Source: an uncultured Gammaproteobacteria bacterium
Lineage (GTDB): Bacteria; Pseudomonadota; Gammaproteobacteria; HK1
Reading direction: 5' to 3'
Length of the DNA stretch: 59,985 nucleotides
Assembly (NCBI GenBank): GCA_965365655.1
Contig: CBDUCN010000001.1
Location: 1-59,985, forward strand
Shown: piece by piece, positions 7,981-22,711 of the stretch
Numbering within the stretch: position 1 is the stretch's first letter
Layout: every line of letters starts with the position of its first letter
Position numbers and translations under genes: made by a program
Notes under the pieces: generated by a model
Told to the model about the DNA's origin: nothing
Databases searched by the model: none
The model's input: the letters and a program-made list of their open reading frames with translations, nothing else

Positions 7981-9507
7981 TTGAGCGCTGCTCGAGGGAC
8001 ACCGACGCGATCCGCGGCGTGGCTGGCGTGCGCGCTGTGGCTGGTTGCCGCCGGCTGCGGGGCCGGCGAGCCGCAGGTGCTGCGATTCGGTATCGCGAAC
8101 GCGCCGGAGAACCTGGATCCGCGAACCGCCACCGACGCGGCATCCACCCGCGTCAACCGGCTGCTGTACGCGCGGCTGGTGGATTTCGACGAGCAGTTCC
8201 GCCCGGTGCCCGCGCTGGCGCGCTGGGAGCAGATCACGCCGCTGCGCTACCGCTTCCACCTGCGCGACGGGCGCCGCCCGTTCCACGACGGCACGCCGCT
8301 CACCGCCCAAGACGTCGTCGCGACCTACCGCGACGTGCTGGACCCGGCCGGCGGCTCGCCGCACCGCGGCTCGCTGCACATGGTGGCCGCCGTGGACGCG
8401 CTGGACGCGGACACGGTCGAGTTCACCCTGTCGGCGCCCGACGCGCTGTTCCCGGGGCGCCTCGTGGTCGGGATCCTCCCGCGCCGGGCGCTGACGGCGG
8501 GCCGCGCGTTGTCCCGCGAGCCGGTCGGCAGCGGGCCCTTCCGCTTCGTGTCGTGGCCCGGTCCGGAGCGCCTGCGCATCCAGCGCCTGGACGACGGCGC
8601 GATGGTGGAATTCCAGCGCGTGTCGCGCCCGGACGTGCGCCTGCTGAAGCTGCTGCGCGGCGAGCTGGACGCGCTGCAGGGCGACCTGCCGCCGGAGCTG
8701 CTCGGCTGGCTGCAGCGCCAGCGCGAGGTGCAGGTGATCGAGCGCGAGGGCACCACCTTCGCGTACCTGGGCTTCAACATGCGCGACCCGGTGACCGGCG
8801 ATCCGCGGGTGCGCAGGGCGGTCGCGCACGCGCTAGACCGCGACGCGATCATCCGTCACCTGTGGGCCGGCGGGGCGCGCCCGGCGAGCGGCGTCCTGAC
8901 GCCGGACCATTGGGCCGGGCACCCGGCGCTCGCGGCGCCGGCGCACGACCTGGACGCCGCGCGTCGGCTGCTCGCGGAGGCCGGCTACGGTCCCGGGCGG
9001 CCTGCACGGCTCGTGTACAAGACGTCGACCAACCCGGTGCGGGTGCGCATCGCGAGCGTGATCCAGCACCAGCTCTCGCGCGCCGGCATCGAGGTGGATC
9101 TGCGCACCTACGACTGGGGCACCTTCTACGGTGACATCAAGAGCGGCAACTTCCAGCTCTACAGCCTGGCCTGGGTGGGCATCAAGATGCCGGACATCTT
9201 CCGCTACGCGTTCCACAGCGCGTCCATGCCGCCGCAGGGCGCGAACCGCGGGCGCTGGGCGGACGACGAGGTGGACGCGCTGATCGCGGCCGCGGAGGCG
9301 GCCCCGGATCTCGCCGCGCAGGCGCGGCTGTACCGGCGCGTGCAGGAGCGCGTGATGGAGGCGCTGCCCTACGTCCCGCTGTGGTACGAGAGCCAGGTGT
9401 TCGCCGCGCGGCCCGGGGTGCGCGGCTACCGGCTGACGCCCGACGGCAGCTACGACGGGCTGGTGCAGGCGCGCTGGGACGAGCCGGCCCGGCAGCGTGC
9501 GCCGTGA
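7981..9507 (+). CDS. ABC-transporter substrate-binding lipoprotein, family 5 (peptide/nickel, DppA/OppA/MppA-like)
   Basis: 508 aa from a TTG start. Lipobox LVAAGC, then typical family-5 sequence (FGIANAPENLDPR, FNMRDPV, YKTSTNP). No permease or ATPase genes are adjacent. Confidence 0.85.
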   Translation: MSAARGTPTRSAAWLACALWLVAAGCGAGEPQVLRFGIANAPENLDPRTATDAASTRVNRLLYARLVDFDEQFRPVPALARWEQITPLRYRFHLRDGRRPFHDGTPLTAQDVVATYRDVLDPAGGSPHRGSLHMVAAVDALDADTVEFTLSAPDALFPGRLVVGILPRRALTAGRALSREPVGSGPFRFVSWPGPERLRIQRLDDGAMVEFQRVSRPDVRLLKLLRGELDALQGDLPPELLGWLQRQREVQVIEREGTTFAYLGFNMRDPVTGDPRVRRAVAHALDRDAIIRHLWAGGARPASGVLTPDHWAGHPALAAPAHDLDAARRLLAEAGYGPGRPARLVYKTSTNPVRVRIASVIQHQLSRAGIEVDLRTYDWGTFYGDIKSGNFQLYSLAWVGIKMPDIFRYAFHSASMPPQGANRGRWADDEVDALIAAAEAAPDLAAQARLYRRVQERVMEALPYVPLWYESQVFAARPGVRGYRLTPDGSYDGLVQARWDEPARQRAP

Positions 9508-9998
9508 GCGCCGCCGGCCCGCGCGTCGTGATCAGCCTGCCGGAGCAGCGGCTTCAGCTGCTGGCGCCCGGCGGCGACGTGGTGTGGGAGGTGGCGGTGT
9601 CGTGCGCGGCCAACGGGCCCGGGGAGCGCATGCACAGCGGCTGCACGCCCCGCGGCCGGCATCTCATCCGCGCGCTCATCGGCGCCGACGCGCCGGTGAA
9701 CACGGTGTTCGTGGGCCGGCGTCCGACCGGCGAGCGCTACAGCCCCGCGCTGCGCGAGCGTTACCCGCAGCGCGACTGGATCCTCACGCGCATCCTGTGG
9801 CTGTCCGGCCTCGAGCCGGGCCGCAACCGGCTCGGCGACGTGGACACCATGCGCCGCTTCATCTACATCCACGGCGCACCGGACGAGGTGCCGATGGGCG
9901 TGCCGGGCAGCCACGGCTGCGTGCGCATGCGCAACGCGGACGTGATCGCGCTGTTCGACCGCGTGCGCGCCGGCACCCGGGTGCTGATCGAAGGCTGA
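9504..9998 (+). CDS. L,D-transpeptidase (YkuD domain) protein
   Basis: C-terminal catalytic motif YIHGAPDEVPMGVPGSHGCVRMRNADV. Start set to GTG 9504, which forms a GTGA overlap with the SBP stop. The track ORF begins at 9381 inside the SBP gene. Confidence 0.8.
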   Translation: MSAAGPRVVISLPEQRLQLLAPGGDVVWEVAVSCAANGPGERMHSGCTPRGRHLIRALIGADAPVNTVFVGRRPTGERYSPALRERYPQRDWILTRILWLSGLEPGRNRLGDVDTMRRFIYIHGAPDEVPMGVPGSHGCVRMRNADVIALFDRVRAGTRVLIEG

Positions 9999-10058
9999 CG
10001 CCCGGCGTCCGGCGGCGACGCGGCCCGCGGGGTTCCATCGCGGGCGCGCGCGCCGCCG

Positions 10059-10118: not shown

Positions 10119-11093
10119 TCACGCCTTCTTCAGGAGCTCCGCCGGCGCGCGCTCGAGCTCGATCTTCATCGCCATCCGCTGCTGGGCGCGCACGAGGTAG
10201 TCGATGGTCGCCAGGTCGCGCTCGCCGAGGCCCAGCGCCGTCTCCACCCACACCTCCGCCATGCGCTGCAGCGCGCTCCGGTCGAGCGGGGTCGCCGCGT
10301 CGACGGCGCGCCGGAACGCGGCGCGAGCGTGGTGCTGGCGGTCGTGGCTGCGGATCCAGCGCGCCACCGCGATCTCGCCTTCGCCTTCTTCGGCCAGCAC
10401 GTCCACCACGCCCAGCGCGTGCAGCTCTTCCGCGCGGTAGGTGCGCCCGCCGAGGATGATGCGCTCCGCCTCGGCCGGGCCGACGCGCCGGCTCAGGAAC
10501 TGCCACGCGCCCATCCCGGGGAACATGTTGAACAGCACCTCCGGCAGGCCCATCTTGCTGCCGCGCTCGGCGACCAGCACGTGCGCCGAGAGCGCCGCCT
10601 CGAAGCCGCCGCCGAGGGCCTGGCCGCGCACCAGCGCGATGGTGGTCACCGTGTGGCCGTAGCCCGTCGCGTTGGCGTGCACGAGGTCCACCGCGTCCAT
10701 CGCGTAGCGGCGCAGCGTGGTCGCGTCCTGGCGGTCGATGCAGTCACGGAACAGCGCGAGGTCGCCACCGAGGCTGAATACGCCGGGCACGTCGGACGCG
10801 AGCACCTGGTAGCGCGGCGCCCGTTCGCCGTGCCGCTCGCTCAGGTACGCGGCGATGCGATCCTGCAGGCCGCGCAGCTCGCCGAGCAGGTCCGGCGTGA
10901 AGCGGGCAGGGCACTCCGGGCGCAGGCGCACCCACAGCGTGCCCGGGTCCTGATCCACGGCCACCTCGCAGTGCTCCGTGGAGCGCGGTGCGGCCGCGGC
11001 GGGCGGGCGGCGGTGTCGGGGCGCGGCCTCGACGAGCCGTGGTATCGCGCCGGTGGATGGCTCATGAGATGAAAAGTCGCTGGAAACGTGCAT
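10119..11093 (-). CDS. Crotonase-superfamily protein resembling DSF-family signal synthases (RpfF / Bcam0581-like)
   Basis: 324 aa with YQVLASDVPGVFSLGGDLALF, ALGGGFEAALS, GLPEVLFNMFPGMGAWQFL and IDYLVRAQQR. From memory these match RpfF-type enzymes rather than ordinary FadB-type hydratases, and both crotonase catalytic Glu positions are present. Strong RBS (GGGAGGGG) 5-7 nt before ATG 11093. Confidence 0.7.
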   Translation of the reverse strand: MHVSSDFSSHEPSTGAIPRLVEAAPRHRRPPAAAAPRSTEHCEVAVDQDPGTLWVRLRPECPARFTPDLLGELRGLQDRIAAYLSERHGERAPRYQVLASDVPGVFSLGGDLALFRDCIDRQDATTLRRYAMDAVDLVHANATGYGHTVTTIALVRGQALGGGFEAALSAHVLVAERGSKMGLPEVLFNMFPGMGAWQFLSRRVGPAEAERIILGGRTYRAEELHALGVVDVLAEEGEGEIAVARWIRSHDRQHHARAAFRRAVDAATPLDRSALQRMAEVWVETALGLGERDLATIDYLVRAQQRMAMKIELERAPAELLKKA

Positions 11094-11247
11094 GGAACCC
11101 CTCCCAGAGGCTTGTTGTCAGCCCCTTTCTTGATTGCTGAGTCGCGTGATTCGCGGCCGTTCGCGACACGGCCTGTTACCAGCATATGAGGGGGTTGCCC
11201 GTGTACCAAGAAACTTCTTCTTTGTGTCGTGAAGCGTTGTCGTGCGC

Positions 11248-11277
11248 CTGTAAAGAACTGTAAAGAAGTGTAACCAA
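11248..11277 (+). promoter_or_regulatory. Three 10-bp-phased direct repeats (CTGTAAAGAA CTGTAAAGAA GTGTAACCAA), candidate OmpR/PhoB-type response-regulator box
   Basis: Read directly in the divergent intergenic region between the crotonase gene (ATG 11093) and the ACP gene (ATG 11457). A near-identical box occurs at 19614-19633. Confidence 0.45.
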
Positions 11278-11302
11278 GCACCTGGATCGGCGACCGCGGG
11301 CG

Positions 11303-11331
11303 TTGTCTGCGCGTGGCCGGGGCCCTACATT
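11303..11331 (+). promoter_or_regulatory. Candidate sigma70 promoter of the ACP-KS-exporter operon
   Basis: TTGTCT-17 nt-TACATT (11303-11308 and 11326-11331), just downstream of the direct-repeat box and about 125 nt upstream of the ACP ATG. Hexamers are weak. Confidence 0.25.
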
Positions 11332-11456
11332 CCCAAACACTGGAACGTTCACCCGCAACGTGATCGGGCCTGACCGGACGGCAGGTGCGGAGGTCCGGAC
11401 GGGAAGACGTCCCCGGCCGTGGGTATCGGCTGTCGTCAGCCTGGAGGTAACGAACC

Positions 11457-11726
11457 ATGTCAGCTGTGATGCGCAACGACAGCGTCGAGAGCCGGGTCCT
11501 GAGGGTGGTCACGGAGGTGCTCGCGCTCGACGAGGAGCCGCGCGACCTCGACCTGTCCATCACCCGCGAGCTGGCGCTGGACTCGCTGGACCAGCTGTCG
11601 CTGTTCATGGCCCTGGAGGACGAGTTCGGCGCGCGCATCCGCGAGGAAGACGCGGAGCGCATCGCGACGCTGCGTGACGTCGTCGAGTACATCCGAACCA
11701 GGATGAGGCTCGCCGCCGCCGAATGA
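11457..11726 (+). CDS. Acyl carrier protein (stand-alone)
   Basis: 89 aa, acidic, with the phosphopantetheine-attachment motif LALDSLDQLSLFMALEDEFG. GGAGG RBS lies about 10 nt upstream. Confidence 0.85.
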   Translation: MSAVMRNDSVESRVLRVVTEVLALDEEPRDLDLSITRELALDSLDQLSLFMALEDEFGARIREEDAERIATLRDVVEYIRTRMRLAAAE

Positions 11727-13096
11727 CGCGGCGGGTGGTCGTCACCGGCCTCGGAGTCATCAGCAGCTTCGGTGACGACCCAGAGGGGTTCTGGCGCGAC
11801 TGCCTCGCGGGGCGCGGCGTCGCGGAACCGATCCCGGACGCGTGGCGGGACTACGCGACGCTGCGCTCCTCGCTGTGGGCGCCGATCACGCTCCCCGATT
11901 TCTCCACCGGCTTCTCGCGCGTCGAGCGCTCGCAGCACGATCCGGTGACGCTGATGGCCTGCGCGAGCGCCGCACAGGCGCTCGAGGGCGCCGGCATCGA
12001 GAGCCGGGTGGTGGACCGCCGCAGCAACGCCCGCGCGCTGGACGGGGTGTCGTCCGAGCGCTGCGCGGTGTTCGTCGGGACCGGGGTCGGCGGCGCGCAC
12101 AGCTTCATGCAGAACCACGCGTACCACGTCCTCGCGCATGCCCGGGAGCGGCTGCAGGGACTGCGTGGGCAGGCGCGTGACCCGGCGCTGGTCGAGGGCA
12201 TGGACGCGCTGCTGGCGAGCATGGAGCACGCGCCGCGCTTCAATCCGTTCGTGGTCTCGATGCTGATGCCCAACGCGCCCTCGGCCTACCTCGGCATCAA
12301 GTACGGGCTGCGAGGGCCGAACGCGGCCTGCGTGCAGGCCTGCGCGTCCGGCACGGTGGCGGTGGGCCGCGCGTGGCAGGCCATCGCCGAGGGGCATGCG
12401 GACTGCGCGCTCGCGGGCGGCACCGAATACCTGGACGACCCGCGGGGCAGCATCTTCCTCGGCTTCGACATCTGCAGGGCCCTCGTGCGCGACTGCGATC
12501 CGCCCGAGACGGCCAACCGTCCGTTCGATGCCGCCCGCTCGGGCTTCCTGTTCGCGCAGGGCGGCGCCGCGATGCTGATGCTGGAGAGCGCAGAGCACGC
12601 GGCGGCCCGCGGCGCGCGCACACTGGCCGAGGTGGTGGCCTTCGCCGAGAGCTTCGACGCGCACAGCATGATGAGCCCGGAGCCGCACGGGCGGGCCATG
12701 GAGGCGATGCTGCGCGATCTGCTCGTGCGCGGCGGGATCGGCCCCGGTGACGTGGACTACGTGAACGCTCACGGCACCGGGACGCACAGCAACGACGCCT
12801 GCGAGGCGGCCGTGATCGAGCGTGTGTTCGGCTCGCGGGTCGCGGTGAACTCGACGAAGTCGCTGCTCGGCCACACCATCGGCGCGAGCGGCGCCATCGA
12901 GGCGGCGGTCACGGCGCTCAGCCTGCGGGACCAGCGGCTGCACCCGAGCCGCAACCTGAGCGAGCCCATCGCGGACCTCGACTTCGTGACCCACGCGCAG
13001 GCGCGCGACCTGCGCTTTGCCGTCAGTCAGTCCTTTGCGTTCGGCGGACACAATGCAGCCCTCCTCATGGCGCGCGCCGACGTCGCCGGGGGCTGA
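11723..13096 (+). CDS. Beta-ketoacyl-ACP synthase (KAS I/II, FabF/FabB-like elongating type)
   Basis: 457 aa with RRVVVTGLGVISSFG, active-site Cys in VQACASGTVAVG, and His residues in VNAHGTGT and LLGHTIGASG. ATGA overlap with the ACP stop. Confidence 0.9.
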   Translation: MTRRVVVTGLGVISSFGDDPEGFWRDCLAGRGVAEPIPDAWRDYATLRSSLWAPITLPDFSTGFSRVERSQHDPVTLMACASAAQALEGAGIESRVVDRRSNARALDGVSSERCAVFVGTGVGGAHSFMQNHAYHVLAHARERLQGLRGQARDPALVEGMDALLASMEHAPRFNPFVVSMLMPNAPSAYLGIKYGLRGPNAACVQACASGTVAVGRAWQAIAEGHADCALAGGTEYLDDPRGSIFLGFDICRALVRDCDPPETANRPFDAARSGFLFAQGGAAMLMLESAEHAAARGARTLAEVVAFAESFDAHSMMSPEPHGRAMEAMLRDLLVRGGIGPGDVDYVNAHGTGTHSNDACEAAVIERVFGSRVAVNSTKSLLGHTIGASGAIEAAVTALSLRDQRLHPSRNLSEPIADLDFVTHAQARDLRFAVSQSFAFGGHNAALLMARADVAGG

Positions 13097-15428
13097 GGGC
13101 GCGAGCGGGTCCGGCAGCCCGCCGCAGCCCGCCCCCGCCGAGCCGCCGCACTCGCCCGTGGCCGATGCCTGGCTGGCGTTCCTGGAGCGCCGGCGTGCGC
13201 TCGTGCTGGCGTTGATCGCGCTGGTGCTGCTCGCGGCCGCCGGCGGCGTGCCGCGGCTGCAGGTTGCCGGCAACTACGAGGTCTACTTCGACGAGACCAA
13301 CCCCCGGCTCGAAGCGCTGAACGCGCTGCACGCACGCTTCTCGCGCAACGACAACGTGCTGTTCGCGCTGGTGCCGGAGGGCGGCAACGCGTTCTCGCCG
13401 GCGACGCTGGCCGCTGCCGCGACGCTGACCGCGCAGGCCTGGCACCTGCCCTACGCGGCGCGGGTGGACTCGGTCACGAACTACCAGCACATCACCTCCA
13501 CCGAGGACGGGATTGCGATCGGCGACCTGGTGCCCGACCCCGCCGCGCTTGACGAGGAGACGGCAGCGCAGGTGCGCGCCACGGCGCTCCACCAGCCGGC
13601 GCTGGTGCGTCGGCTGGTGGCCCCGTCGGGGCAGGTGATCGGCGTGAACGTGCGCCTGGCGCTGGGCGACGACTCCCGTTCGGAGGTGCTCGAGGCCGCG
13701 GCGGCGGCGCGCGAGCTGGCGGCGAGCATCGAGGGCGAGCACCCGGGCCTGCGGGTGCTGCTCACCGGCAACGCGATGCTCAACGCCGCATTCTCCGAGG
13801 CCAGCATTCGCGATCTCACGCACCTGACGCCGTTCATGTACCTCGCCATCGGGCTCGGGCTGTGGCTGCTGCTGCGCAGCGCCGGCGCGGCGCTGCAGGC
13901 GATGACGGTGGTGGCGCTCGCGTCGCTGTTCGCGATGGGCATGGCGGGCTGGCTGGGACTGCCGGTGAGCTCGGGGTCGGTGGTCGCGCCCACCATCGTC
14001 ACCACCGTGGCCGTCGCGGACTGCATCCACCTGCTGGCGAGCTTCCTGGGGCCGCGCTCGCGCGGCGTCCCGACCCGGGAATGCGTGAGGCAGTCGCTGG
14101 GGCTGAACCTGCGTCCCGTCGCGATCACCAGCCTGACCACCGCGGTGGGTTTCCTCAGCCTCAACTTCAGCGACGCCCCGCCGTTCCGGGACCTGGGCAA
14201 CATCACCGCGCTCGGGGTCGCGGCCGCCTTCGCGATGAGCGTGGCGCTGCTGCCGATCATGATGCTGGTCCTGCCGCCGCGGCCCGGACGGCCCCCGCGG
14301 CTGCGGCTGGACGCGCTGGGCGCGAGCATCATCGCCCGCCGCCGGATGGCCTTCGCGGCGGTGCTGGTCGTCACCGCGGCAGGCGCCGCGCTGCTGCCGC
14401 GCATGCAGCTCAACGACGCTTTCGTCGAGTACTTCGACGAGAGCCTGTCGTTTCGCCGCGACACCGATCTCGTGATGGCGACTCTGACCGGGATCTACCA
14501 GGTGGACTACGTCCTCGAGGCCGGCGCGGCGCACGGCGTGAACGCGCCTGAGTACCTCGAGGGCGTGCGACGCTTCGCGGCCTGGTTGCGGATGCAGCCG
14601 GAGGTGATGCACGTCGCCGACATCACCGAGGTGCTCACCCGGCTCAACGGCCACCTCGCCGGGGAGCGCGACGCACTCCCGTCCAGCCGCGATCAGGCCG
14701 CGCAGTATCTGCTGCTCTACGAGATGTCGGTGCCCTACGGGCTGGACCTCAACGACCGCCTGGACGTGGAGCGCGAGGCGAGCCGGGTCACGGTGACCCT
14801 GCGCAACCTCGACAACGCGAGCCTGCAGGCCTTCGAGGCGCGCGCCGCGGCCTGGATGGAAGCGAACCTGGCGCCGCAGCTGCACGCGCCGGCCGTCGGT
14901 GCGTCGGTGATGTTCGCCTACATCGCCGAGCGCAACATCCGCGCGATGCTGCGCGGCGCGGCGCTCGCGGTGGTCGTGATCGCGGCGCTGCTCGCGGTCG
15001 TCCTGCGCAGCGTGCGCCTGGGGTTGCTGAGCCTGCTTCCGAACCTGGTTCCGGCCGTGATCGCGTTCGGCGTCTGGGCGCTGACGGTCGGACAGATGGG
15101 CGTGGCCCTCGCGGTGGTCGCCGCGATGTCGCTGGGCGTGGTCGTGGACGACACCGTGCACTTCACGAGCAGCTTCCTGGCCGCACGTCGGCGCCTGCGG
15201 CTCGGCCCCGACGCTGCGGTGGCGCACGCTTTCGCACGCACCGGTACCGCGCTCGCGTCCACCTCGCTGGTGCTGGTCCTGGGCTTTGGCGTGCTGTCCA
15301 TGTCCGCGTTCGAGGTCAACCACGGCATGGGGCAGCTGTCGGCGCTGGTGATCGCCTGCGCCCTGGTGGCCGACCTGCTCATGCTGCCGCAGCTCCTGGC
15401 GTTCGCCGCGCGGCGCGGCTGGTGCTGA
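13053..15428 (+). CDS. RND-superfamily exporter of the MMPL/HpnN-like (COG1033) type
   Basis: Two 6-TM bundles, each preceded by a large soluble loop (TPFMYLAIGLGLWLLLRS..., GVVVDDTVHF...). The start is uncertain: TTG 13017 (track), ATG 13053, or GTG 13158 (VADAWLAFLERRRALVLAL). Confidence 0.8.
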   Translation: MQPSSWRAPTSPGAEGASGSGSPPQPAPAEPPHSPVADAWLAFLERRRALVLALIALVLLAAAGGVPRLQVAGNYEVYFDETNPRLEALNALHARFSRNDNVLFALVPEGGNAFSPATLAAAATLTAQAWHLPYAARVDSVTNYQHITSTEDGIAIGDLVPDPAALDEETAAQVRATALHQPALVRRLVAPSGQVIGVNVRLALGDDSRSEVLEAAAAARELAASIEGEHPGLRVLLTGNAMLNAAFSEASIRDLTHLTPFMYLAIGLGLWLLLRSAGAALQAMTVVALASLFAMGMAGWLGLPVSSGSVVAPTIVTTVAVADCIHLLASFLGPRSRGVPTRECVRQSLGLNLRPVAITSLTTAVGFLSLNFSDAPPFRDLGNITALGVAAAFAMSVALLPIMMLVLPPRPGRPPRLRLDALGASIIARRRMAFAAVLVVTAAGAALLPRMQLNDAFVEYFDESLSFRRDTDLVMATLTGIYQVDYVLEAGAAHGVNAPEYLEGVRRFAAWLRMQPEVMHVADITEVLTRLNGHLAGERDALPSSRDQAAQYLLLYEMSVPYGLDLNDRLDVEREASRVTVTLRNLDNASLQAFEARAAAWMEANLAPQLHAPAVGASVMFAYIAERNIRAMLRGAALAVVVIAALLAVVLRSVRLGLLSLLPNLVPAVIAFGVWALTVGQMGVALAVVAAMSLGVVVDDTVHFTSSFLAARRRLRLGPDAAVAHAFARTGTALASTSLVLVLGFGVLSMSAFEVNHGMGQLSALVIACALVADLLMLPQLLAFAARRGWC

Positions 15429-15516
15429 CGGCCGCGGAACAGGCGACAGCGGGTGCGGCGCGGCGTCCCGCGCCGGTCCCGGTGCGTAGCGTCGCCTGGA
15501 TTCAGACCGTCTGGTT

Positions 15517-18153
15517 TCAGGCCTTGCGCCGCAGGTAGCTCACGAGCTCGCGGCGGGTGCCGTCGAATGCCTCGCGCAGCTCGTCCAGCGCGGCGCGCAC
15601 GGCCGGCTCGTCGCGTTGCGCGAGCGCCTGGTCCAGCGCCTCGGTGCCGTGCTCCACGGCCAGAGCGCCCACCGTGCGCGCGGCGCCGCGCAGCTCGTGG
15701 GCGTGCTCTCCCGCCGCGCTCCAGCCCTGGCGGTCGCGATCGGCGTCCAGGCTCGCGAGCAGCCGCTCGCCGTCGGCCACGAACTGGTCCAGAACCTCCT
15801 GCAGGAAGCCACCGCCGCCGTCCAGTCGAGACAGCCCCGCCAGCTTGTCGCGGTCGATGCTGGTGCCGGTCCACTGCCCGGCGGGCCCGGGGCGCGGTGC
15901 GCACGTCGCCGCCGCCGGTGCGCATGTCAGCGCGCTCGCGCCGGGGCGCGCCCTGGCGCCCGGAGCGGCCTGCCGGCCCGTGACCTGATCGAGGGTGTCG
16001 AGCAGGCGCCGCGGCTCCAGCGGCTTGGTCAGGTATGCATCGAAGCCTGCGTGGCGCGCAATGGACAGGGCGTCGGTGGTCGCGTTCGCCGTGAGCATGA
16101 TGAACGGGATGTAGCGCCGGTCCGCGTTCGCGATGCGGAACAGCTTCAGGGTGTCCACCCCGCCCAGCTCGGGCATCTGCATGTCCAGGATGCAGGCGTC
16201 GTAGTCGTGGCTGTCGAGGCACTCGAGCGCCTCGCGGCCGTCCTCGGTCAGCGTGACCCGGTGACCGGCCTGCTCCAGCACCCGGCTGATCACCTTGCGG
16301 TTCACCGGGTTGTCCTCCGCGACCAGCAGATCCAGGCTGCCGCCGCGCGGGGCCGGCTCGGCGTCGTCGGCGCGTGCCGGAGCCTCGGTGGCGGCCACCG
16401 CGCCGATGCGCTCGGCCGCCGGCTCGTAACCGGCGCTCGCGGCATGCACCGCGTTGAACAGGTACGCGTCGTCGATGGGGCGGTGCAGGATCGACGTGTA
16501 GCCGGCGCCCACCAGGGTCTCGGCGTCCGCGGTCTGCTCGCCGTCGGCAATCAGCACCAGCGGCAGGTCGGCCAGCGACGGCTCGCGATGCGCGGTGGCC
16601 GCGAAGCGCGCCGGATCGACGCTGAGCGCCTGCTGGTCGATCACCGCGACCTGGCAGCCGCGGTCGCCGCGGGCCCCGTCGACGAGACTCGCGAGCGCCT
16701 GCGCGTCGCTGCTCGCCACCGTGACCTTGTCCGCCCAGTGGCCGAGGCTGCGCCGCAGCCGGGTCGCGTCCAGCTCGGAGTTGCTGAGCAGCAGCACGTG
16801 GCCGATGCGGTTCCCGCCCGGCACGCCCGGCGCGTCGTCCGCCACCTCCGCCTGGCGCGCGAAGGACAGCGTGAACCAGAACCGGCTGCCCTGTCCGGGC
16901 GCGCTCTGCAGCCCGATTCGCCCGCCCATCAGCTCGACGAGCTGCTTCGCGATGGAGGTGCCGAGGCCGGTGCCGCCGTAGCGTCGGGTCACGGACTCGT
17001 CGGCCTGCGTGAAGCTGTCGAAGATGCGCGCCTGCACGTCGGCCGGCATTCCGATTCCCGTGTCGATGACCTCGAAGCGGATCTCGACGCCGTCCTCGCT
17101 GCTGCCCATCAGCGTGAGCCGCAGCTCCACGCTTCCCTCGTGCGTGAACTTCAGCGCGTTGCCGATCAGGTTGATGAGCACCTGGCGCAGGTGCTGCGGA
17201 TCTCCGCGCAGGCGGAACGGCACCGCCGCGTCGATGTAAGTGTTGAGCTGCAGCCCCTTGGCGCGGGCCTGGGGCGCGAACATCTTGCTGGTCGACTTCA
17301 CCAGCATGTGCAGGTCGCAGTCCGCCTCCTCCACCAGGACCTTCCCGGCCTCGATCTTCGAGATGTCCAGGATGTCGTTGAGCAGCTCGAGCAGCGCGTT
17401 GGCCGACGCATGGATCGTCTGCACGAAATCGCGTTGCTCGCGGTCCAGCCGTGTCTGCACCAGCAGGTCGCTCATCCCGATCACGCCCGACAGCGGCGTG
17501 CGGATCTCGTGGCTCATGTTGGCGAGGAACGTGCTCTTCGCACGGCTCGCGTCCTCGGCGCGCTGGATGGCGTCGTTCAGGCGGCGGATGAGCGCCGCGA
17601 CGTACAGCGGCAGCACGATCAGGCCGACCAGCACGCCCACGCCCAGGTACGGGTTCGCGCGCCAGTACTCGCTCATCGCGAGGGTGATGCCGAAGCCGGT
17701 GGCGCTCGCGACCATGGCCAGGTGCAGGTAACGGGTGCCGTAGCGGAAGCCGTTGCCGAAGGTGACCCAGAGGTAGACGACGAACAGCGGCGCGCCCGGC
17801 GCGCCGGTGCATGCCATCGCGTAGGTCGTGAAGCCGATGTCCACCGCCATGCCCAGCAGCCGTCGCAGCACCGAGCGCCGGGGCCACGCCGCCACGGCGG
17901 CGAGGATCACCACCGAAGAGGAGAGGAAGGCGAGACCCACCACGCGGTGGGTCGCGGACATGGTGTCGGGAGAGCCGTGCGCGAACACCCCGCCGCCGTA
18001 CAGATACGCGAGCACCAGCAGACCGATGCACACGCGCACGATGGCCTGCTCCGGCTCCGTGTCGGGGCAGCGCTTCAGGCGGTCGCGCAGCTTCAGTCCC
18101 GTCCTGGCGACGGTGCGGCGCAGCGAGTTCGGAGGAAGCAGATCCAGCAACAC
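15517..18153 (-). CDS. Hybrid sensor histidine kinase: multi-TM input, HisKA, HATPase, degenerate receiver, REC, HPt (RpfC-like domain order)
   Basis: 878 aa from a GTG start preceded by a GGAG RBS. Contains several N-terminal TM helices, H-box [17 protein letters not shown]-box [13 protein letters not shown]-boxes DTGIGM and [25 protein letters not shown]...[11 protein letters not shown], and HPt [12 protein letters not shown]. Confidence 0.9.
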
Positions 18154-18234
18154 GGTCTCCCCGGAATCGCCTGCTGGCCCCGCGGGGGCCTTCGTCAGGG
18201 ATCGTAGCGGATCACGCCGGGCCGCGTGACGGCC

Positions 18235-19455
18235 TCAGCCAACGGCTCGCGCCCGCTGCTCGAGGGCCCGGCCGACGCGCGCGCGCTGGCGCGGGTTGTG
18301 GACGAGCCAGTCGCTGAACTCGCGTGCCGACATGGGCGGGCTGATGTGCAGGCCCTGGCCCACGTCGCAGCCCAGGCGTCCCAGCCAGCGCAGCGTCTGC
18401 TCGCTCTGGATCCCCTCGGCGACCACCGTCAGTCCCACGCTGCGCGCGAGGTCCAGGCTGGACCGGATCATCGCCGCGGCGTCCTCGCTGCGCTCCGCGC
18501 GCATCGCGAACTTCTTGTCCAGCTTCAGCGTCTCGTAGGGGAACTCGTTGAGCTGGCCCAGCGAGAACGCGCCGCTGCCGAAGTCGTCCAGCGCGAGGCG
18601 GATGCCCTTGAGGCGCAGCCGGCTCAGGGTATCGGTCATGCGCTGGCGGTTCTCGGGCATCGTGGTCTCGGTCACCTCGAGCACCAGGTCCTCCGGCCGC
18701 GCGCCGACGCGCGCGAGCAGCCGGCCGATTCGATCCGGCAGTGTCTGGTCGATCAGCAGCAGCGGGGAGACGTTCACCGCGACCTGGATGCGCGTGCTCG
18801 TGGTCTGCCAGTGCACGAGGTCCTCGAGGGCGCGCTGCAGCACCGCGAACGTGAGCGGCTCGATGAGCCCCGTTCGCTCGGCGACGGGCACGAACTGCTC
18901 GGGCAGCACGATCGCGGCGTTCGAGCGGTGCAGGCGCGCCAGCGCCTCGGCGCACACGACGCCTCCGGTGTTGAGGTTCACCATCGGCTGGTAGCACACC
19001 TCCAGCCGGTCGTCGCGCAGCGCCCGCGCCAGCTCCTCGCCGGTGATGGACTCCGGCGACGCGGCGGGCGCACCGGGCTGGTCGCGGAACGCCTTCAGCC
19101 GCCGGCGCACGTCGGCGACCATCAGCGGCTTGCGGATCGGGTCCAGCATCTGCAGTCCGAGGGACTCGCCCAGGGAGTGCGCGGCGCCGAGCAGGCGCTC
19201 GTCCACGCCGCTGGTCACGACGACGTGGGTGTCGCTGCGCTCGGACGCGATGAAGCGCAGCAGCTCGACGCCGTCGATGTTGCGCATGTTCAGGTCGAGG
19301 AACACGAGAGCCGGCTCGAAGGCGCGGAACGACGACTCGAAGAACTCGGCGTCCAGCACCGAGTGCACCTCGTAACCCACGCTCTCGCATGCCCTTTTGA
19401 GCACGCGGAGAATCCGGCGATCGTCGTCGACCGCGACGATGCGGGTACGTGACAT
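18235..19455 (-). CDS. Response regulator with EAL domain (REC-EAL c-di-GMP phosphodiesterase)
   Basis: REC domain: RIVAVDDDRRILRVL...VFLDLNM. EAL domain: CYQPMV, AEALARL, NVSP, LEVTE, LDDFGSGAFS, LKLDK, VAEGIQ, GQG. Start moved to ATG 19455 (MSRTRIV...). Confidence 0.85.
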   Translation of the reverse strand: MSRTRIVAVDDDRRILRVLKRACESVGYEVHSVLDAEFFESSFRAFEPALVFLDLNMRNIDGVELLRFIASERSDTHVVVTSGVDERLLGAAHSLGESLGLQMLDPIRKPLMVADVRRRLKAFRDQPGAPAASPESITGEELARALRDDRLEVCYQPMVNLNTGGVVCAEALARLHRSNAAIVLPEQFVPVAERTGLIEPLTFAVLQRALEDLVHWQTTSTRIQVAVNVSPLLLIDQTLPDRIGRLLARVGARPEDLVLEVTETTMPENRQRMTDTLSRLRLKGIRLALDDFGSGAFSLGQLNEFPYETLKLDKKFAMRAERSEDAAAMIRSSLDLARSVGLTVVAEGIQSEQTLRWLGRLGCDVGQGLHISPPMSAREFSDWLVHNPRQRARVGRALEQRARAVG

Positions 19456-19594
19456 GGCTGCACCGCTTCTTGTTGTCGAGCGGCGTGCCCCGGGCCGATA
19501 CGTGCCGGATCCGGTGACCGCCGCCGTCATCGCCCGCCGATCCTTGGCGGGCGCGTACAAGGGGAACAATAGGCACGCAAGGTGCCTGCGTCCA

Positions 19595-19633
19595 CTAAAG
19601 AATTGATTCCGTACTGTAAAGAACTGTTAAATC
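19595..19633 (+). promoter_or_regulatory. Second copy of the phased direct-repeat box (CTAAAGAA ... CTGTAAAGAA CTGTTAAATC)
   Basis: Positions 19614-19633 match 11248-11267 at 17 of 20 positions, with the first 14 identical. A third half-site, CTAAAGAA, lies 21 bp upstream. The box sits in the 203-bp gap upstream of the REC-EAL gene. Confidence 0.45.
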
Positions 19634-19658
19634 CGGACCCGCGACCCGTTTTGTTGTG

Positions 19659-20405
19659 TCAAGCTGGGTCATGAAAAACGTTTTGTTCTCGGTTTTCGGA
19701 GCCCGGGGGCAGCGTCAGCGAGACCCGGGTGCCGGTCCCCGGCGCGCTCGTGATGCGAAGCTGCCCGCCGCTGGCGCGGGCGAAGCCGTCGACCACGCTG
19801 AGCCCGATGCCGCGGTGCTGCGCGTCCGGGCGGGTCGTGAAGTAGGGCTCGGTGCACCGCGCCAGCACCTCGGCGCTCATGCCCACGCCGTCGTCGGCGA
19901 CGGTGAGCGAGGGCGCGCCGCCGCCGTCCGTGCCGAGCGCGATGACCAGCGTGCCGCCGTCGGGCATCGCGTCGCGGGCGTTGGCGGCGAGCTCCATCAG
20001 CGCGTGCTGCAGCCGGACCGGGTCCACGCTCGCGATCGGCGTCGGCCCCGGGGCCGAGAGCGACACCGTGATCGCGCCGGGCAGGGCGCGCTCCAGCATC
20101 GGCGCCATGTCCCGCGCGAGCTGCTCGAGGTCGGTGGGCCGGGGGTTCAGCGCCTGCCGGCCGGCCCACGCGGTGAGCTGGGCGATGACGTCGGCCGCTT
20201 CGCGTGTCGCGGACACGACGTCGTCGTAGACCTCGTCCAGATCGGTGCCCCACGCCGACGCCGGAATCTCCTCGCGCAGCAGGCTCAGTCCGCCGAGGAT
20301 GATGCTGAACAGGTTGTTGAAGTCATGGCCCATGCGCCGCACCAGGAGCGGGGCGCTCATGGACTCGGGCGGGGGCTGCGGCGGGATCGCGTCTTCTGGG
20401 CTCAT
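19659..20405 (-). CDS. Cytoplasmic histidine kinase lacking an obvious sensor domain
   Basis: H-box VRRMGHDFNNLFSIILGG, N-box ELAANARDAM, G1 DDGVGM, G2 GIGLSVV. Start moved to ATG 20405 (MSPEDAI...), giving about 248 aa consisting essentially of DHp plus CA domains. Confidence 0.75.
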   Translation of the reverse strand: MSPEDAIPPQPPPESMSAPLLVRRMGHDFNNLFSIILGGLSLLREEIPASAWGTDLDEVYDDVVSATREAADVIAQLTAWAGRQALNPRPTDLEQLARDMAPMLERALPGAITVSLSAPGPTPIASVDPVRLQHALMELAANARDAMPDGGTLVIALGTDGGGAPSLTVADDGVGMSAEVLARCTEPYFTTRPDAQHRGIGLSVVDGFARASGGQLRITSAPGTGTRVSLTLPPGSENREQNVFHDPA

Positions 20406-20583
20406 GACCGGGAGCAACCTGGGACGGGGAGAAGCAACGGCGTCGAAGGCTATACTAGCGAAATGTCTGGCGAAGTTATCCGGTCCCGACCGCGCCGTGG
20501 TCCCACCTCCTCGCCGGGCAGCGCTCTGCCGTGCGGCGGCGACGGCGCGACAGCGCGCCGGTAGGCGAGCACGGATCGGCACC

Positions 20584-21306
20584 ATGTCCGCGCCGCCCGG
20601 GATTCTCATCGTCGATGACGATCCGCGGCTGCGCCGGTTGCTCGCGCGCTTCCTTCTGCGCGAGGGCTACCAGGTGCGCGAGGCCGCGAACGCGGACGAG
20701 ATGCGCCGCGCGCTGACGCTGCGCGGAGCCGACCTGATCGTGCTCGACCTGATGCTGCCCGGCGAGGACGGGCTGAGCCTCGCGCGCGAGCTGCGCGCGA
20801 CCTCCGACGTGCCGATCGTGATGCTCACCGGCAAGGGCAGCACGGTGGACAAGGTCGTGGGTCTCGAGGTGGGCGCGGACGACTACATCACGAAGCCCTT
20901 CGACGAGCGGGAGCTGCTGGCGCGGATCCGCACGGTGCTGCGCCGTACCGGCAACCGCCTCGCGTCGGCGCCGGAGTCGCCGGAGCGGCGCATGGCGCGC
21001 TTCGAGGGCTTCTCGGTGGACATGGTCGCGCACGAGGTGGTGGCTCCGGACGGCCGCCACGTCGAGTTCACCGGCAACGAGTTCCAGCTCCTCGCGTCGC
21101 TGATCGTGCGCCCGCAACGCGCGCTGTCGCGCCAGGAGATCCTGGAGCTGGTGTTCCGCCGCGAGTGGTCGCCCAGCGACCGCAGCATCGACGTGCTGGT
21201 CGCGAAGCTCAGGCGCAAGCTCGGCGACGATCCCCGCCACCCCCACATGATCAAGACCGTGCGCGGGGTCGGCTACAAGTTCACCGCCTCGGTGGAGTTC
21301 AGCTGA
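20584..21306 (+). CDS. OmpR/PhoB-family response regulator (REC + winged helix)
   Basis: ILIVDDDPRLRRLL, IVLDLMLPGEDG, and C-terminal VLVAKLRRKLGDDPRHPHMIKTVRGVGYKF. Start at ATG 20584. The track ORF (20245) carries an implausible extension. Confidence 0.9.
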   Translation: MSAPPGILIVDDDPRLRRLLARFLLREGYQVREAANADEMRRALTLRGADLIVLDLMLPGEDGLSLARELRATSDVPIVMLTGKGSTVDKVVGLEVGADDYITKPFDERELLARIRTVLRRTGNRLASAPESPERRMARFEGFSVDMVAHEVVAPDGRHVEFTGNEFQLLASLIVRPQRALSRQEILELVFRREWSPSDRSIDVLVAKLRRKLGDDPRHPHMIKTVRGVGYKFTASVEFS

Positions 21307-21436: not shown

Positions 21437-21527
21437 GGAGAGGTACCGAAGCGGTCATAACGGCACCGACTCGAAATCGGTTGGTCCTTAACTGGGCACG
21501 TGGGTTCGAATCCCACCCTCTCCGCCA
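21437..21527 (+). tRNA. tRNA-Ser (anticodon CGA), CCA encoded
   Basis: Manual fold: acceptor GGAGAGG/CCTCTCC, anticodon stem ACCGA/TCGGT, loop CTCGAAA (CGA at 21472-21474), long variable arm, T-arm GGGTTCGAATCCC, discriminator G plus CCA. Confidence 0.9.
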
Positions 21528-21779
21528 TCCTCCTCATTCTCCCGTGCGCCCCGGCGCGTGCGCGTCGCCGCCCGTTCGCGTCCTGCGAACCGGCCCCGGT
21601 CGGTTCGCGCCGGCGCGGAGTACGATCCGCCAGGCGGCCGAGGAGCTCGCCATGGCGACCATCTTTCTCTCCCACCGGCGAAGCCACCGTCCCAGTGACG
21701 AGCTCCGCGATGCTGAACCGCCACGGCCCCGACCCGGCACAGCGGCGCGGGCGCTGAGCCGGGTGCCGCGAGCGGTGCG

Positions 21780-22154
21780 ATGATTCCCACCGTCGCTACG
21801 GGTGTCGGCGTGTTCATCGCGGTGCTCGGGCTCCTCGGCTGTGTGCGGCCGCGCACCCTCATGGACCTCGTCGAGAGCGTCTGGCGCCCGCCGTGGGGCC
21901 CGTGGGCAGTCGCCGCGGCGCGCCTGCTGATCGGCAGTGTGCTGCTGCTCGCCGCGCCGGGCTCGCGTTTCCCGACGACCGTCGGCGTCTTCGCCTGCCT
22001 CGCAATCATCGGCGGGCTCGCCGTACCGACCATGAGCCGGGAACGCCGCCTCGCCATTCTCGGCTGGTGGCGGCGCCGGCACGCCACTTTCCTGCGCGCG
22101 TGGTCGGTAGCGGCGCTCGCCTGCGGCGCGTTCGTCGTCTACGCGTGCGGCTGA
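21780..22154 (+). CDS. Hypothetical small membrane protein
   Basis: 124-aa ORF with 3-4 hydrophobic segments (GVGVFIAVLGLLG, LLIGSVLLLAAPG, VGVFACLAIIGGLAV, WSVAALACGAFVVYA). No family recognised. Confidence 0.45.
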   Translation: MIPTVATGVGVFIAVLGLLGCVRPRTLMDLVESVWRPPWGPWAVAAARLLIGSVLLLAAPGSRFPTTVGVFACLAIIGGLAVPTMSRERRLAILGWWRRRHATFLRAWSVAALACGAFVVYACG

Positions 22155-22501
22155 GCCCGTGAACCTCTTGTCAGGATCCCACCACCGTCCGCTGGGGGGA
22201 TGCCTGCGCCGCCGTGTCGGACCTCCCGGTCTGCCGTGCACCGATGCCATGGCGCAGGACGCGCGGTCGGCGCCGGGCGCTGATCCGCGTCACAGAGAGG
22301 TCCTGGCCGAGGTCCCGGACGCGCTCCGGCACGGCCCGTCCGGTGCGGGTCGCGGGCAGCCTGAATCCGGCGCACAGATGCACCCCACCGCCTCGCGCAG
22401 GCGGACGCTCGATGCCCGAGCCGAGCCGTGGCCCGCCTCCCGGGCGAAGCACCGTCGCCCCGCGCCGGTGCGCTCGTGTTCTATTCCCCCGGGATCGGCG
22501 C

Positions 22502-22711
22502 TCAGCTGTCGAGCTTCACGGGATTGTGACGCTCGAGGATCTCGACGACCTCGCGCTCCGAGGCGTCCGGTGTCATCACCTGCACCTGACGCTTGTCCTC
22601 ACTGACCCGGATCTTCTCGGTCGGGATACCGGTCGATACCAGGTCGTCGTATACGTTCGTCAACGTGTCCGTGGATGCGTAAACGGCAGTCACGATTTCT
22701 GTCATGGCCAA
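22502..22711 (-). CDS. Hypothetical small acidic protein (69 aa)
   Basis: Balanced, non-shadow composition (MAMTEIVTAVYASTDTLTNVYDDLVSTGIPTEKIRVSEDKRQVQV...). AGAGGA RBS lies 7 nt upstream of the ATG. Locally lower G+C. Confidence 0.55.
   Translation of the reverse strand: MAMTEIVTAVYASTDTLTNVYDDLVSTGIPTEKIRVSEDKRQVQVMTPDASEREVVEILERHNPVKLDS

Follow-up and report, generated by a model that had tools for sequence, protein, structure and literature searches.

The region 10119–21306 of the 59,985-nucleotide stretch analyzed here (the window), from an uncultured high-GC gammaproteobacterium, appears to hold a DSF (rpf-type) cell-to-cell signaling locus of the RpfF/RpfC type; taken whole—signal synthesis on a private carrier combined with a branched regulatory output—we regard this reading as reasonably probable. 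The argument draws on which genes are present, their homology and catalytic residues, their co-conservation, and the conserved repeats. A preliminary description had recognized eight genes and their domains and proposed a possibly undescribed DSF-like variant. Exactly eight coding frames lie within this interval, marked by a third-position GC of 0.87–0.94, and their domains were confirmed with Pfam and NCBIfam. The variant does seem to be undescribed: a search of the published literature turned up no paper on a layout joining ACP/KS, RpfF/RpfC, and EAL/OmpR genes. The features are as follows.

10119–11093, minus strand: rpfF-like putative DSF synthase, a crotonase of 324 aa (Pfam ECH_1, NCBIfam, and PDB matches)
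11106–11126, minus strand: conserved 7-bp hairpin immediately 5′ of the rpfF ribosome-binding site (RNAalifold)
11249–11277, minus strand: three tandem TTCTTTACA copies with a 10-bp period in the divergent rpfF/acp-ks promoter region (exact 9-mer count and alignment)
11457–11726, plus strand: stand-alone acyl carrier protein (ACP), 89 aa (Pfam PP-binding, E = 1.6e-9)
11723–13096, plus strand: FabF-like elongating ketosynthase (KS), 457 aa, with an insertion of ~30 aa (Pfam ketoacyl-synt N and C domains)
13053–15428 (frame from 13017), plus strand: MMPL/HAE3-type RND transporter (Pfam MMPL, E = 7e-27; TIGR00921 HAE3, 123 bits)
15517–18153, minus strand: rpfC ortholog with multi-TM input, HisKA, HATPase, pseudo-receiver, REC, and HPt (Pfam)
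18235–19455 (frame to 19569), minus strand: REC-EAL response regulator, a predicted RocR/PvrR-type c-di-GMP phosphodiesterase (Pfam Response_reg and EAL, E = 3.5e-64)
19593–19633, minus strand: second TTCTTTACA tandem element, upstream of the REC-EAL/rpfC operon (conserved intergenic position)
19659–20405 (frame to 20609), minus strand: soluble minimal histidine kinase, DHp and CA only, ~248 aa (Pfam HATPase_c)
20584–21306, plus strand: OmpR-family DNA-binding response regulator (Pfam Response_reg and Trans_reg_C)

The DSF-like character of the locus is borne out by its crotonase, which is much nearer to RpfF than to ordinary hydratases, and by its RpfC-type kinase. In the comparison that the preliminary description had suggested, the crotonase scored 229.6 bits against the NCBI RpfF equivalog model—under the cut-off of 550—and at most 74 against each generic hydratase model; NF006452 was matched at 323 bits (cut-off 177). 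PDB matches include Xanthomonas campestris (Xcc) RpfF (3m6m, E = 2e-56) and 7zq7 (E = 2e-57), with the Bcam0581 structure 5fus more distant (E = 1e-39). All four RpfF catalytic residues (PMC9040811) are kept: G110, G162, E165, and E185 align to Xcc G86, G138, E141, and E161. The motifs quoted earlier are all found in the protein, which belongs with the RpfF DSF-synthase group.

The ACP carries a DSL serine motif and scores under the AcpP equivalog cut-off (62.7 vs. 70.45; NCBIfam). Its stop codon overlaps the KS start as ATGA, and the identical 4-nt overlap in relatives agrees with the translational coupling posited previously. The KS likewise falls under the fabF cut-off (328.6 vs. 493.75 bits; NCBIfam). 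Aligned to Thermus thermophilus FabF (1j3n), it keeps the Cys (ACASG), both His (NAHGTGT and GHTIGASG), and the Lys, and its insertion places residues 129–167 opposite eight FabF residues.

Co-conservation of crotonase, ACP, and KS, checked by a neighborhood survey, was seen in multiple lineages. The ACP/KS pair adjoins rpfF in relatives L001, L004, L006, L007, L089, and L090, and also in the rearranged L008 with its differing flanks. In a reverse search from the KS, two homologs picked from contigs outside the RpfF match list (L092 and L093) both proved to lie within rpf clusters. In L025, L039, L043, L051, and L057, rpfF is adjoined by an ACP and a KS of another, shorter type, and the RpfFs form separate clades by linked KS type (neighbor-joining tree without support values). 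The pair is therefore linked to rpfF across several gene orders and lineages, in both search directions. In L093, the dedicated ACP/KS occurs together with a canonical RpfC–RpfG pair, so the added biosynthetic genes and the EAL output count as separate innovations.

The preliminary description had also assigned an exporter to the system. The MMPL/HAE3 gene is present in the window, with ~12 hydrophobic segments and a start better placed at ATG 13053 than at 13017, in agreement with the L089 N terminus, but it is not a conserved system part. It is found in L089, whose RpfF is 86% identical to the window's, and in L095; L004 and L005 have a C-terminal remnant of it, situated between KS and rpfC, and the gene is absent from the other relatives. 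The transporter is an optional part of the cluster, confined to the nearest relatives.

The hybrid kinase is an RpfC ortholog, and the RpfC domain logic ascribed to it stands on its receiver match and TM-input homology. The best PDB match of the receiver is the Xcc RpfC REC domain (3m6m_D, E = 1.7e-24), and full-length homology, TM input included, extends to rpfF-adjacent kinases in 56 of 80 genomes; homologs bear the name RpfC at JGI and NCBI. The N terminus has five or six hydrophobic helices, with a sensor motif, D31-T32-E33-x-x-Q36, preceding TM1. Its D, T, E, and Q are in register with Xcc D17, S18, E19, and Q22, so that four of the five ligand-sensing residues are kept, the fifth (Arg15) being shifted by one position; an S18T change leaves Xcc RpfC functional (PMC5391125). 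The extra degenerate receiver is real: Pfam alone gave only E = 0.19, residues 444–600 matched the kinase's true REC domain in profile–profile comparison (97% probability, E = 6e-11), and AlphaFold2 modeled residues 449–573 as a (βα)5 unit with pLDDT ~85–90.

The most consistently conserved output genes are those of the soluble kinase and the OmpR-type regulator. The kinase has the H-box GHDFNNLF, matches NF010076 over residues 93–309 (NCBIfam), and was found to contain no TM segment; its likely start is 20405, and relatives' versions span 230–241 aa. The regulator is 56–82% identical to same-position regulators in L001–L008. The pair is co-conserved in L001 and L004–L008, including the rearranged L008, and is found in every relative whose contig extends to that side of the cluster. 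A sensor-less kinase and OmpR-type regulator, described previously as an extra two-component pair, are thus present but not extra.

By analogy, the target of this pair is probably a conserved operator located at the promoters of the cluster itself. The window contains three exact copies of the TTCTTTACA 9-mer, all of them within the cluster, against 0.26 expected. When the rpfF/acp-ks intergenic sequences are aligned, the repeat is the most strongly conserved block in L089, L001, L004, and L090, and L006 and L007 have degenerate versions; the second element recurs between the corresponding genes of L001, L004/L005, and L090, with partial conservation in L007. Orientation and distance to the start codon (~150–165 nt) are alike at both promoters and in relatives. 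The tandem repeat is likely an operator for autoregulation, for which the OmpR-type regulator is the candidate because OmpR/PhoB regulators bind direct repeats.

All biochemical and regulatory steps of the mechanism we propose are predictions from sequence. The dedicated KS would take an acyl primer supplied by general fatty-acid synthesis and condense it with malonate on the dedicated ACP, and housekeeping FabG would reduce the 3-oxoacyl-ACP. Near the locus there is no gene for a reductase, a malonyl transferase, or a phosphopantetheinyl transferase, so the pathway would rely on housekeeping enzymes outside the window. The RpfF homolog would convert 3-hydroxyacyl-ACP to the cis-2-enoyl form and hydrolyze the thioester to the free acid. 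The private pair may fix chain length, shield the intermediate from FabZ/FabA, and keep the RpfF thioesterase off the bulk acyl-ACP pool; the MMPL-type RND pump, presumably dispensable, probably aids export in the window's lineage. Binding of the acid at the membrane-proximal N-terminal motif of the RpfC ortholog would trigger autophosphorylation, with phosphate passing through REC and HPt to the co-operonic REC-EAL protein for c-di-GMP hydrolysis and probably also to the OmpR-type regulator. The small soluble kinase may also set the phosphorylation state of this regulator, which would bind the repeats upstream of rpfF/acp-ks and REC-EAL/rpfC in an autoregulatory loop.

A linear, RpfG-like wiring, as proposed in the preliminary description, would have RpfC signal to the REC-EAL protein only, as a functional RpfG substitute, and would leave the kinase/OmpR pair as an independent neighbor system. 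The REC-EAL gene does lie directly upstream of rpfC in one operon, the position of rpfG in canonical clusters, and its product (likely start M39, at 19455) has an intact EAL active site: Its best PDB match is RocR (3sy8), the 10 residues used by RocR for catalysis or ligand binding are all kept, as is Asp92, the phospho-acceptor, and among NCBIfam models PvrR scores best (228 bits, under the cut-off of 580). However, its receiver is only 25–27% identical to RpfG receivers, the level seen for unrelated receivers, which rules out an RpfG-type receiver, and the L006 cluster lacks an EAL gene while retaining rpfF, acp-ks, rpfC, and both the small-kinase and OmpR genes. The proposed replacement of RpfG therefore holds for position and not for receiver type, and operon position is the only basis for the putative RpfC-to-EAL link. 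With the kinase/OmpR pair staying with the cluster even in L008 and OmpR-suited repeats conserved at its promoters, we consider the linear wiring unlikely.

It is quite improbable that ACP, KS, and MMPL make and export a separate lipid, such as an envelope lipid, while RpfF uses ordinary fatty-acid intermediates as in Xanthomonas and the genes are neighbors through inherited synteny. In favor of this reading, envelope lipids are the usual cargo of MMPL transporters, and neither a reductase nor a dehydratase gene lies beside the KS. Relatives with RpfF 54–86% identical to the window's also have common flanks (YkuD, SBP_bac_5, and glycolate oxidase), so conservation is partly plain vertical synteny. 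Against this, the trio persists despite rearrangement or changed flanks (L008, L092, and L093), linkage appears in both search directions, and a different KS family has the same divergent ACP-KS/rpfF arrangement, with RpfF clades following KS type; rpfF and acp-ks also have one divergent promoter region with conserved repeats in common. A product other than a free cis-2-enoic acid—for instance a 3-oxo acid, a 3-hydroxy acid, or a derived ketone, with the RpfC-like kinase sensing that compound or membrane state—is very improbable given the four of four RpfF catalytic and four of five RpfC sensor residues kept, even with the crotonase under its equivalog cut-off and one sensor residue out of register. 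Chemically modified products may be suggested by sister clusters, where either a B12-radical SAM enzyme or a cyclopropane-synthase-like methyltransferase is encoded, but a methylated chain would still be DSF-family because DSF itself is methyl-branched.

Like the locus described here, the Xcc cluster (rpfB-rpfF/rpfC-rpfH-rpfG) encodes an RpfF-type synthase, its catalytic residues identical to those in the window, and a hybrid kinase of the RpfC type with multi-TM input, conserved membrane-proximal sensor motif, REC, and HPt, and has a c-di-GMP-degrading response regulator gene just upstream of rpfC. Unlike Xcc, the window lacks rpfB, which was not found anywhere in its 60 kb; has a dedicated ACP and KS (plus the MMPL pump) between rpfF and rpfC, a REC-EAL protein with a non-RpfG-type receiver in place of REC-HD-GYP, and an additional pseudo-receiver in RpfC; and adds the soluble kinase and OmpR-type regulator. 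Burkholderia cenocepacia RpfF(Bc)/RpfR (Bcam0581/Bcam0580) likewise couples a crotonase DSF synthase to EAL c-di-GMP hydrolysis, but with direct signal binding by a cytoplasmic PAS-GGDEF-EAL receptor, whereas the window would combine membrane RpfC sensing with a phospho-regulated EAL receiver protein.

If wired as proposed, the signaling half can be likened to the Pseudomonas aeruginosa Roc (RocS1/RocA1/RocR) and PvrSR/RcsCB networks, which also encode an HPt hybrid kinase, a DNA-binding regulator, and a REC-EAL regulator together. Instead of an OmpR-type regulator, these networks use DNA-binding regulators of NarL/RcsB type. They control fimbrial genes without a linked signal synthase, their sensors are not RpfC-like, and the window's REC-EAL protein does not reach the PvrR equivalog cut-off; the PvrSR/RcsCB network comprises four genes with two kinases (PMC2696094 and PMC3842833). 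In alphaproteobacterial rpfF-rpfC-(REC-PAS-GGDEF-EAL) clusters, an EAL response regulator after rpfC replaces RpfG (~20 of 80 representative genomes), but its receiver is RpfG-type (45–48% identity), it carries PAS and GGDEF domains, and ACP/KS and the small kinase/OmpR pair are missing. Rhizobial NodF/NodE and AcpXL with dedicated ketosynthases are specialized ACP/KS systems that borrow the remaining fatty-acid enzymes for a particular acyl chain. The likeness drawn here is one of private-carrier logic; the rhizobial systems provide the acyl chain of Nod factor or of lipid A rather than a released signal and lack a crotonase/thioesterase.

At the rpfF leader, the hairpin has seven predicted pairs, two of them with compensatory changes (RNAalifold, six relatives).

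At 72% G+C the window yields mechanical ORF lists crowded with false frames, from which eight genes between 10119 and 21306 were singled out (third-position GC at least 0.87). Pfam and NCBIfam searches bore out every domain assignment that the preliminary description had made for these genes. Start codons were revised for four of them using gene lengths in relatives, and the start adopted for the transporter agrees with the N-terminus in the closest relative.

Genes of the cluster at 10119–21306, with revised start codons
Crotonase: ECH_1 domain (Pfam)
Acyl carrier protein (ACP): 89 aa, its stop overlapping the ketosynthase start as ATGA
Ketosynthase (KS): FabF-like (Pfam/NCBIfam)
RND transporter: MMPL/HAE3 type (Pfam/NCBIfam); start at ATG 13053
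Hybrid kinase: HisKA, HATPase, REC and HPt domains (Pfam)
REC-EAL protein (Pfam/NCBIfam); start at 19455
Small kinase: DHp and CA domains only; start at 20405
OmpR-type regulator (Pfam/NCBIfam); start at 20584

By family, the crotonase is an orthologue of the DSF synthase RpfF, with predicted dehydratase and thioesterase activities that would convert 3-hydroxyacyl-ACP to a cis-2-enoic acid. It scores 229.6 bits on the NCBI RpfF model NF053515 vs. at most 74 bits on FadJ, PaaF, β-oxidation, and other hydratase models; it falls below the equivalog cut-off of the RpfF model (550 bits) and clears that of the sister model NF006452 (323 vs. 177 bits). The closest solved structures are an unnamed crotonase (7zq7; E = 2e-57) and RpfF of Xanthomonas campestris (Xcc; 3m6m; E = 2e-56), followed at E = 1e-39 by two 287-aa entries, 5fus and 6dgn, the latter labelled RpfF; ordinary hydratase structures reach about 1e-15 at best. 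The crotonase thus does not group with ordinary hydratases, and both models and structures favor the RpfF-like character first proposed for it. Catalytic Glu141/Glu161 and thioesterase-linked Gly86/Gly138 (Xcc numbering) have been treated as diagnostic (PMC9040811). In the alignment to 3m6m these four positions correspond to E165, E185, G110, and G162, and all four are invariant in 21 homologues.

The hybrid kinase is, judged from its sequence and domain order, an RpfC orthologue. It combines a multi-TM input (helices at 32–189 in an AlphaFold2 model) with HisKA, HATPase, REC, and HPt domains, and its homologues carry RpfC labels from JGI and NCBI. The best receiver match in the PDB for its own receiver is that of Xcc RpfC (E = 1.7e-24), the one co-crystallized with RpfF. 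Full-length matches that include the membrane input link it to the rpfF-adjacent kinase in 56 of 80 representative genomes. Directly before the first membrane helix lies D31-T32-E33-P-E-Q36, a D-T-E-x-x-Q motif conserved across 30 homologues. DSF sensing in Xcc RpfC requires Asp17, Ser18, Glu19, and Gln22, with Thr functional at position 18, and Arg15 is the fifth membrane-proximal sensor residue (PMC5391125). D31, T32, E33, and Q36 are in register with these residues, and the Arg (R28) is one position off. The extra degenerate receiver noticed at the outset is real: residues 444–600 align by profile with the true receiver (97% probability, E = 6e-11) and form a confident (βα)5 unit at 449–573 in the AlphaFold2 model; the N-terminal acidic pair is missing, as is the conserved Lys. 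The RpfC of another genome (L093, 11375–14488; 1,037 aa) matches the membrane input region of the window kinase twice and thus contains a tandemly duplicated sensor module.

The divergent ACP–KS pair adjoins rpfF in six relatives (L001, L004, L006, L007, L089, and L090) whose RpfFs are 54–86% identical to that of the window. These six also share cluster-flanking genes with the window, so that the adjacency there could by itself reflect inherited synteny. A functional link between ACP–KS and rpfF is favored by four more observations. In locus L008 (RpfF 51% identical) the cluster is rearranged and its genomic surroundings differ, yet it still holds rpfF, rpfC, ACP, KS, the small kinase, the OmpR gene, and an EAL protein. 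For a reverse search, we picked two KS homologues (53–56% identical) on contigs outside the RpfF match list; each (L092 and L093) sits in an rpf cluster, with an ACP and a radical SAM enzyme of the B12 type beside it and an RpfF only 44–45% identical to the window's, and L093 carries a canonical RpfC–RpfG(HD-GYP) pair. The same divergent layout recurs with a second, shorter KS type (404 aa, 30% identical to the window KS) in five low-GC gammaproteobacterial genomes; after this KS come a cyclopropane-fatty-acid-synthase-like methyltransferase and a GGDEF-EAL protein of the membrane, and RpfC is absent from these clusters. Finally, the RpfFs tied to each KS type form clades of their own in a neighbor-joining tree of 91 RpfF sequences drawn without support values. 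Many contigs of equal size recur in both the RpfF and the KS match lists, which suggests that the pairing is common in metagenomes.

The window ACP and KS are specialized copies rather than housekeeping genes. The ACP has a PP-binding domain and the DSL serine and falls just under the TIGR00517 AcpP cut-off (62.7 vs. 70.45 bits). The KS reaches 328.6 bits, in two stretches, against a fabF equivalog cut-off of 493.75, and carries an insertion of about 30 residues at 129–167; aligned to 1j3n, it retains the Cys-His-His triad, together with the Lys, that marks a ketosynthase as decarboxylating and elongating. Their ATGA overlap upholds the translational coupling suggested earlier. We also considered a polyketide β-branching cassette, defined by an ACP, a Cys-to-Ser KS, an HMG-CoA synthase, and two crotonases, as an identity for the crotonase, ACP, and KS, and rejected it: the cluster has no HMG-CoA synthase, and the KS active-site Cys is kept.

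Several loci elsewhere vary this theme. In L092 (8156–11374) and L093 (7170–15558), the B12-binding-type radical SAM enzyme (about 509 aa) lies directly upstream of ACP–KS. Its closest similarities, to radical SAM methyltransferases and to radical SAM proteins of lipid biosynthesis, suggest that the signal is methylated along its chain. Loci L025, L039, L043, and L051 (about 5000–10000 in each) represent a separate low-GC gammaproteobacterial rpfF lineage with the second KS type; this lineage, which lacks RpfC, may represent a DSF-type system that uses another receptor. The short contig L057 holds only the KS and ACP of that type. An Arenicellales locus (L009, 6220–10816) keeps rpfF, the dedicated ACP, and rpfC; the gap of about 590 bp between them holds no KS gene, which has apparently been lost.

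The transporter has a narrower distribution. Its protein shows two Pfam MMPL stretches and about 12 TM segments by hydropathy, and lies below the TIGR00921 cut-off (123.5 vs. 351.9). Besides the window, the gene occurs in the 86% relative L089, where it lies at the edge of the contig, and in L095, a fragment of 1.25 kb; scanning metagenomes with the protein gave two short contigs only. Two loci, L004 (7543–7770) and L005 (5967–6194), retain a 76-residue C-terminal remnant, 44% identical, in an uncalled gap exactly between KS and rpfC, and in all other relatives KS is joined directly to rpfC. The remnant together with the absences implies a gene present early in this sub-lineage and repeatedly lost. 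From its family, MMPL probably helps export. We rejected it as a defining part of the system, and it drops out of the core module to which the preliminary description had assigned it: of the proposed crotonase–ACP–KS–COG1033 unit, ACP and KS stay with rpfF across rearrangements, but the exporter is missing from most relatives.

Output regulators beside rpfC differ among genomes. REC-HD-GYP (RpfG) occupies this place in 19 of the 80 representative genomes, and REC-PAS-GGDEF-EAL proteins stand in the RpfG position in about 20, mostly Alphaproteobacteria (L018, L042, L015, and about 17 more alphaproteobacterial loci). Their receivers are 45–48% identical to RpfG receivers, which identifies the alphaproteobacterial proteins as true output-domain swaps of RpfG. 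By Pfam the window regulator carries EAL and lacks an HD domain, and its receiver is only 25–27% identical to six RpfG receivers, which are 46–58% identical among themselves. This comparison speaks against an RpfG with a swapped output domain; the protein does lie upstream of rpfC, at the RpfG position first reported for it, but its receiver is not of RpfG type. Its closest counterparts are RocR (top PDB match) and PvrR (top NCBIfam model, where it falls below the equivalog cut-off with 228 vs. 580 bits). Residues E208, R212, N266, E298, E301, D328, D329, K349, E385, and Q405 align with RocR E175, R179, N233, E265, E268, D295, D296, K316, E352, and Q372, which we take from the RocR literature to be the catalytic and ligand set, and Asp92 aligns with the RocR phospho-acceptor D56. 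Because all ten residues and the phospho-acceptor Asp are kept, we predict that the REC-EAL protein is an active c-di-GMP phosphodiesterase controlled by phosphorylation.

The small kinase and OmpR-type regulator occur in every relative whose contig covers that side (L001, L004, L006, L007, and L008). The EAL gene is less constant: L006 lacks it, and the EAL protein of L007 has no receiver. At L008 (16585–18909) the EAL regulator carries a fused Ser/Thr protein kinase domain (REC-EAL-Pkinase), and a solo receiver beside it is 34% identical to RpfG receivers.

The intergenic regions contain a candidate operator. At 11249–11277, in the divergent rpfF/acp–ks promoter region, TTCTTTACA is repeated three times in tandem with a period of 10 bp, and a second site at 19593–19633, upstream of REC-EAL/rpfC, consists of a tandem pair with one more copy at a distance of two helical turns. 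In 60 kb the exact 9-mer is found three times, always within the cluster, vs. 0.26 expected. In L089, L001, L004/L005, L090, and L091 the tandem element recurs at both of these intergenic positions, and in L006 and L007 it is degenerate; the genomes span 56 to 74% G+C, and conservation in both intergenic alignments is highest at this element. It is oriented toward rpfF or REC-EAL, about 150–165 nt from the start codon, and no further tandem element was found at up to three mismatches in 1.6 Mb of fetched loci. OmpR/PhoB-family regulators bind direct repeats spaced one helical turn apart, which makes the OmpR-type regulator encoded in the cluster the obvious candidate binder. A sigma-70 scan of the cluster gave no promoter-like site, and terminator-like sites in the cluster are not commoner than in shuffled sequence. 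Directly 5′ of the rpfF ribosome-binding site, a 7-bp hairpin (11106–11126, minus strand) is kept in six relatives with two compensatory pairs and may control translation or mRNA stability.

We advance a joint reading tentatively, as possible rather than probable. RpfF, ACP, and KS would form a self-contained pathway, kept apart from the bulk synthesis of fatty acids and with a wide distribution among uncultured Gammaproteobacteria. In it the KS would set the chain length and branching of a DSF-family signal, joined in sister clusters by a B12-radical SAM enzyme or a cyclopropane-synthase-like methyltransferase. The window signal would feed an autoinducing circuit, with RpfC driving both the RocR-like phosphodiesterase and the OmpR-type regulator, the latter acting on the repeats at the synthase and sensor promoters. 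The core of the mechanism is the likeliest explanation of the locus: synthesis would proceed on a private carrier, with NodF/NodE-like logic; MMPL export would be optional; and RpfC would sense the product. One output branch would lower c-di-GMP through the phosphodiesterase, and the other would be a transcription factor autoregulating the locus. The branching would resemble that of the Roc and PvrSR/RcsCB networks (PMC2696094, PMC3842833).

The main rival concerns the wiring only: RpfC would signal to the EAL protein alone, leaving the OmpR-type regulator outside its output. Two other explanations are less likely. ACP, KS, and MMPL could serve a separate lipid pathway, or the product could lie outside the DSF family; co-conservation and the kept catalytic and sensor residues count against both. 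A search of the rest of the window for rpfB/FadD, Clp, FabG, FabD, and a phosphopantetheinyl transferase found none. In classic DSF organisms the synthase draws on the housekeeping acyl-ACP pool, and the acyl-CoA ligase RpfB repairs collateral thioesterase damage. The absence of rpfB from the window fits a private carrier that would lower the need for such repair.

The kind of system is known: rpfF and rpfC are already recognized by automatic annotation. The layout itself had no description in the searchable open-access literature, surveys included; such absence is no proof, and it accords with the earlier suggestion of an undescribed variant. What appears undescribed is the dedicated ACP/KS add-on, with its relatives bearing chain-methylating enzymes, together with the RocR-like EAL output, the conserved small kinase/OmpR pair, and the candidate operator. 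DSF signaling is known almost wholly from Xanthomonas, Xylella, Stenotrophomonas, and Burkholderia. That a large environmental clade equips this synthase with a carrier and a condensing enzyme of its own suggests another way around the thioesterase-damage problem. The private ACP/KS would offer a genetic handle on the determinants of signal structure, with which the chain-methylating sister clusters agree. The locus also indicates that RpfC output has been redirected on at least three occasions: toward HD-GYP, toward REC-PAS-GGDEF-EAL proteins whose receiver is RpfG-type, and toward a RocR-like REC-EAL protein with an OmpR-type regulator. Metagenome surveys relying on rpfF, rpfC, and rpfG alone to count DSF systems would miscount such variants, and the conserved candidate operator provides a directly testable model of autoregulation. 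If true, the joint reading would describe a previously unrecognized route to structurally new fatty-acid signals.

The cluster is flanked by housekeeping genes. After the OmpR gene comes a tRNA-Ser(CGA) (21437–21527), and then about 1.6 kb with weak coding signal (21530–23160) and an AT-rich dip at 22475–22775, beyond which lies an acetyl-CoA synthetase/GNAT gene at 23281. No ORF at 21.4–23.1 kb has a Pfam match. The matching stretch in L001 is only about 550 bp long, and in L007 a phage-type integrase adjoins the OmpR gene; the interval 21437–23160 may be what remains of an integration site after decay. Another RND pump, of AcrB type (27986–31258, minus strand), lies 6.7 kb from the cluster, with no obvious relation to it. 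Farther along, at 57139–57213 (plus strand), an Rfam SAM_alpha (SAM-II) riboswitch match (37.8 bits; gathering score 36) precedes a Cys/Met-metabolism PLP enzyme at about 57.2–58.5 kb; the family is named for Alphaproteobacteria, and the window otherwise looks gammaproteobacterial.
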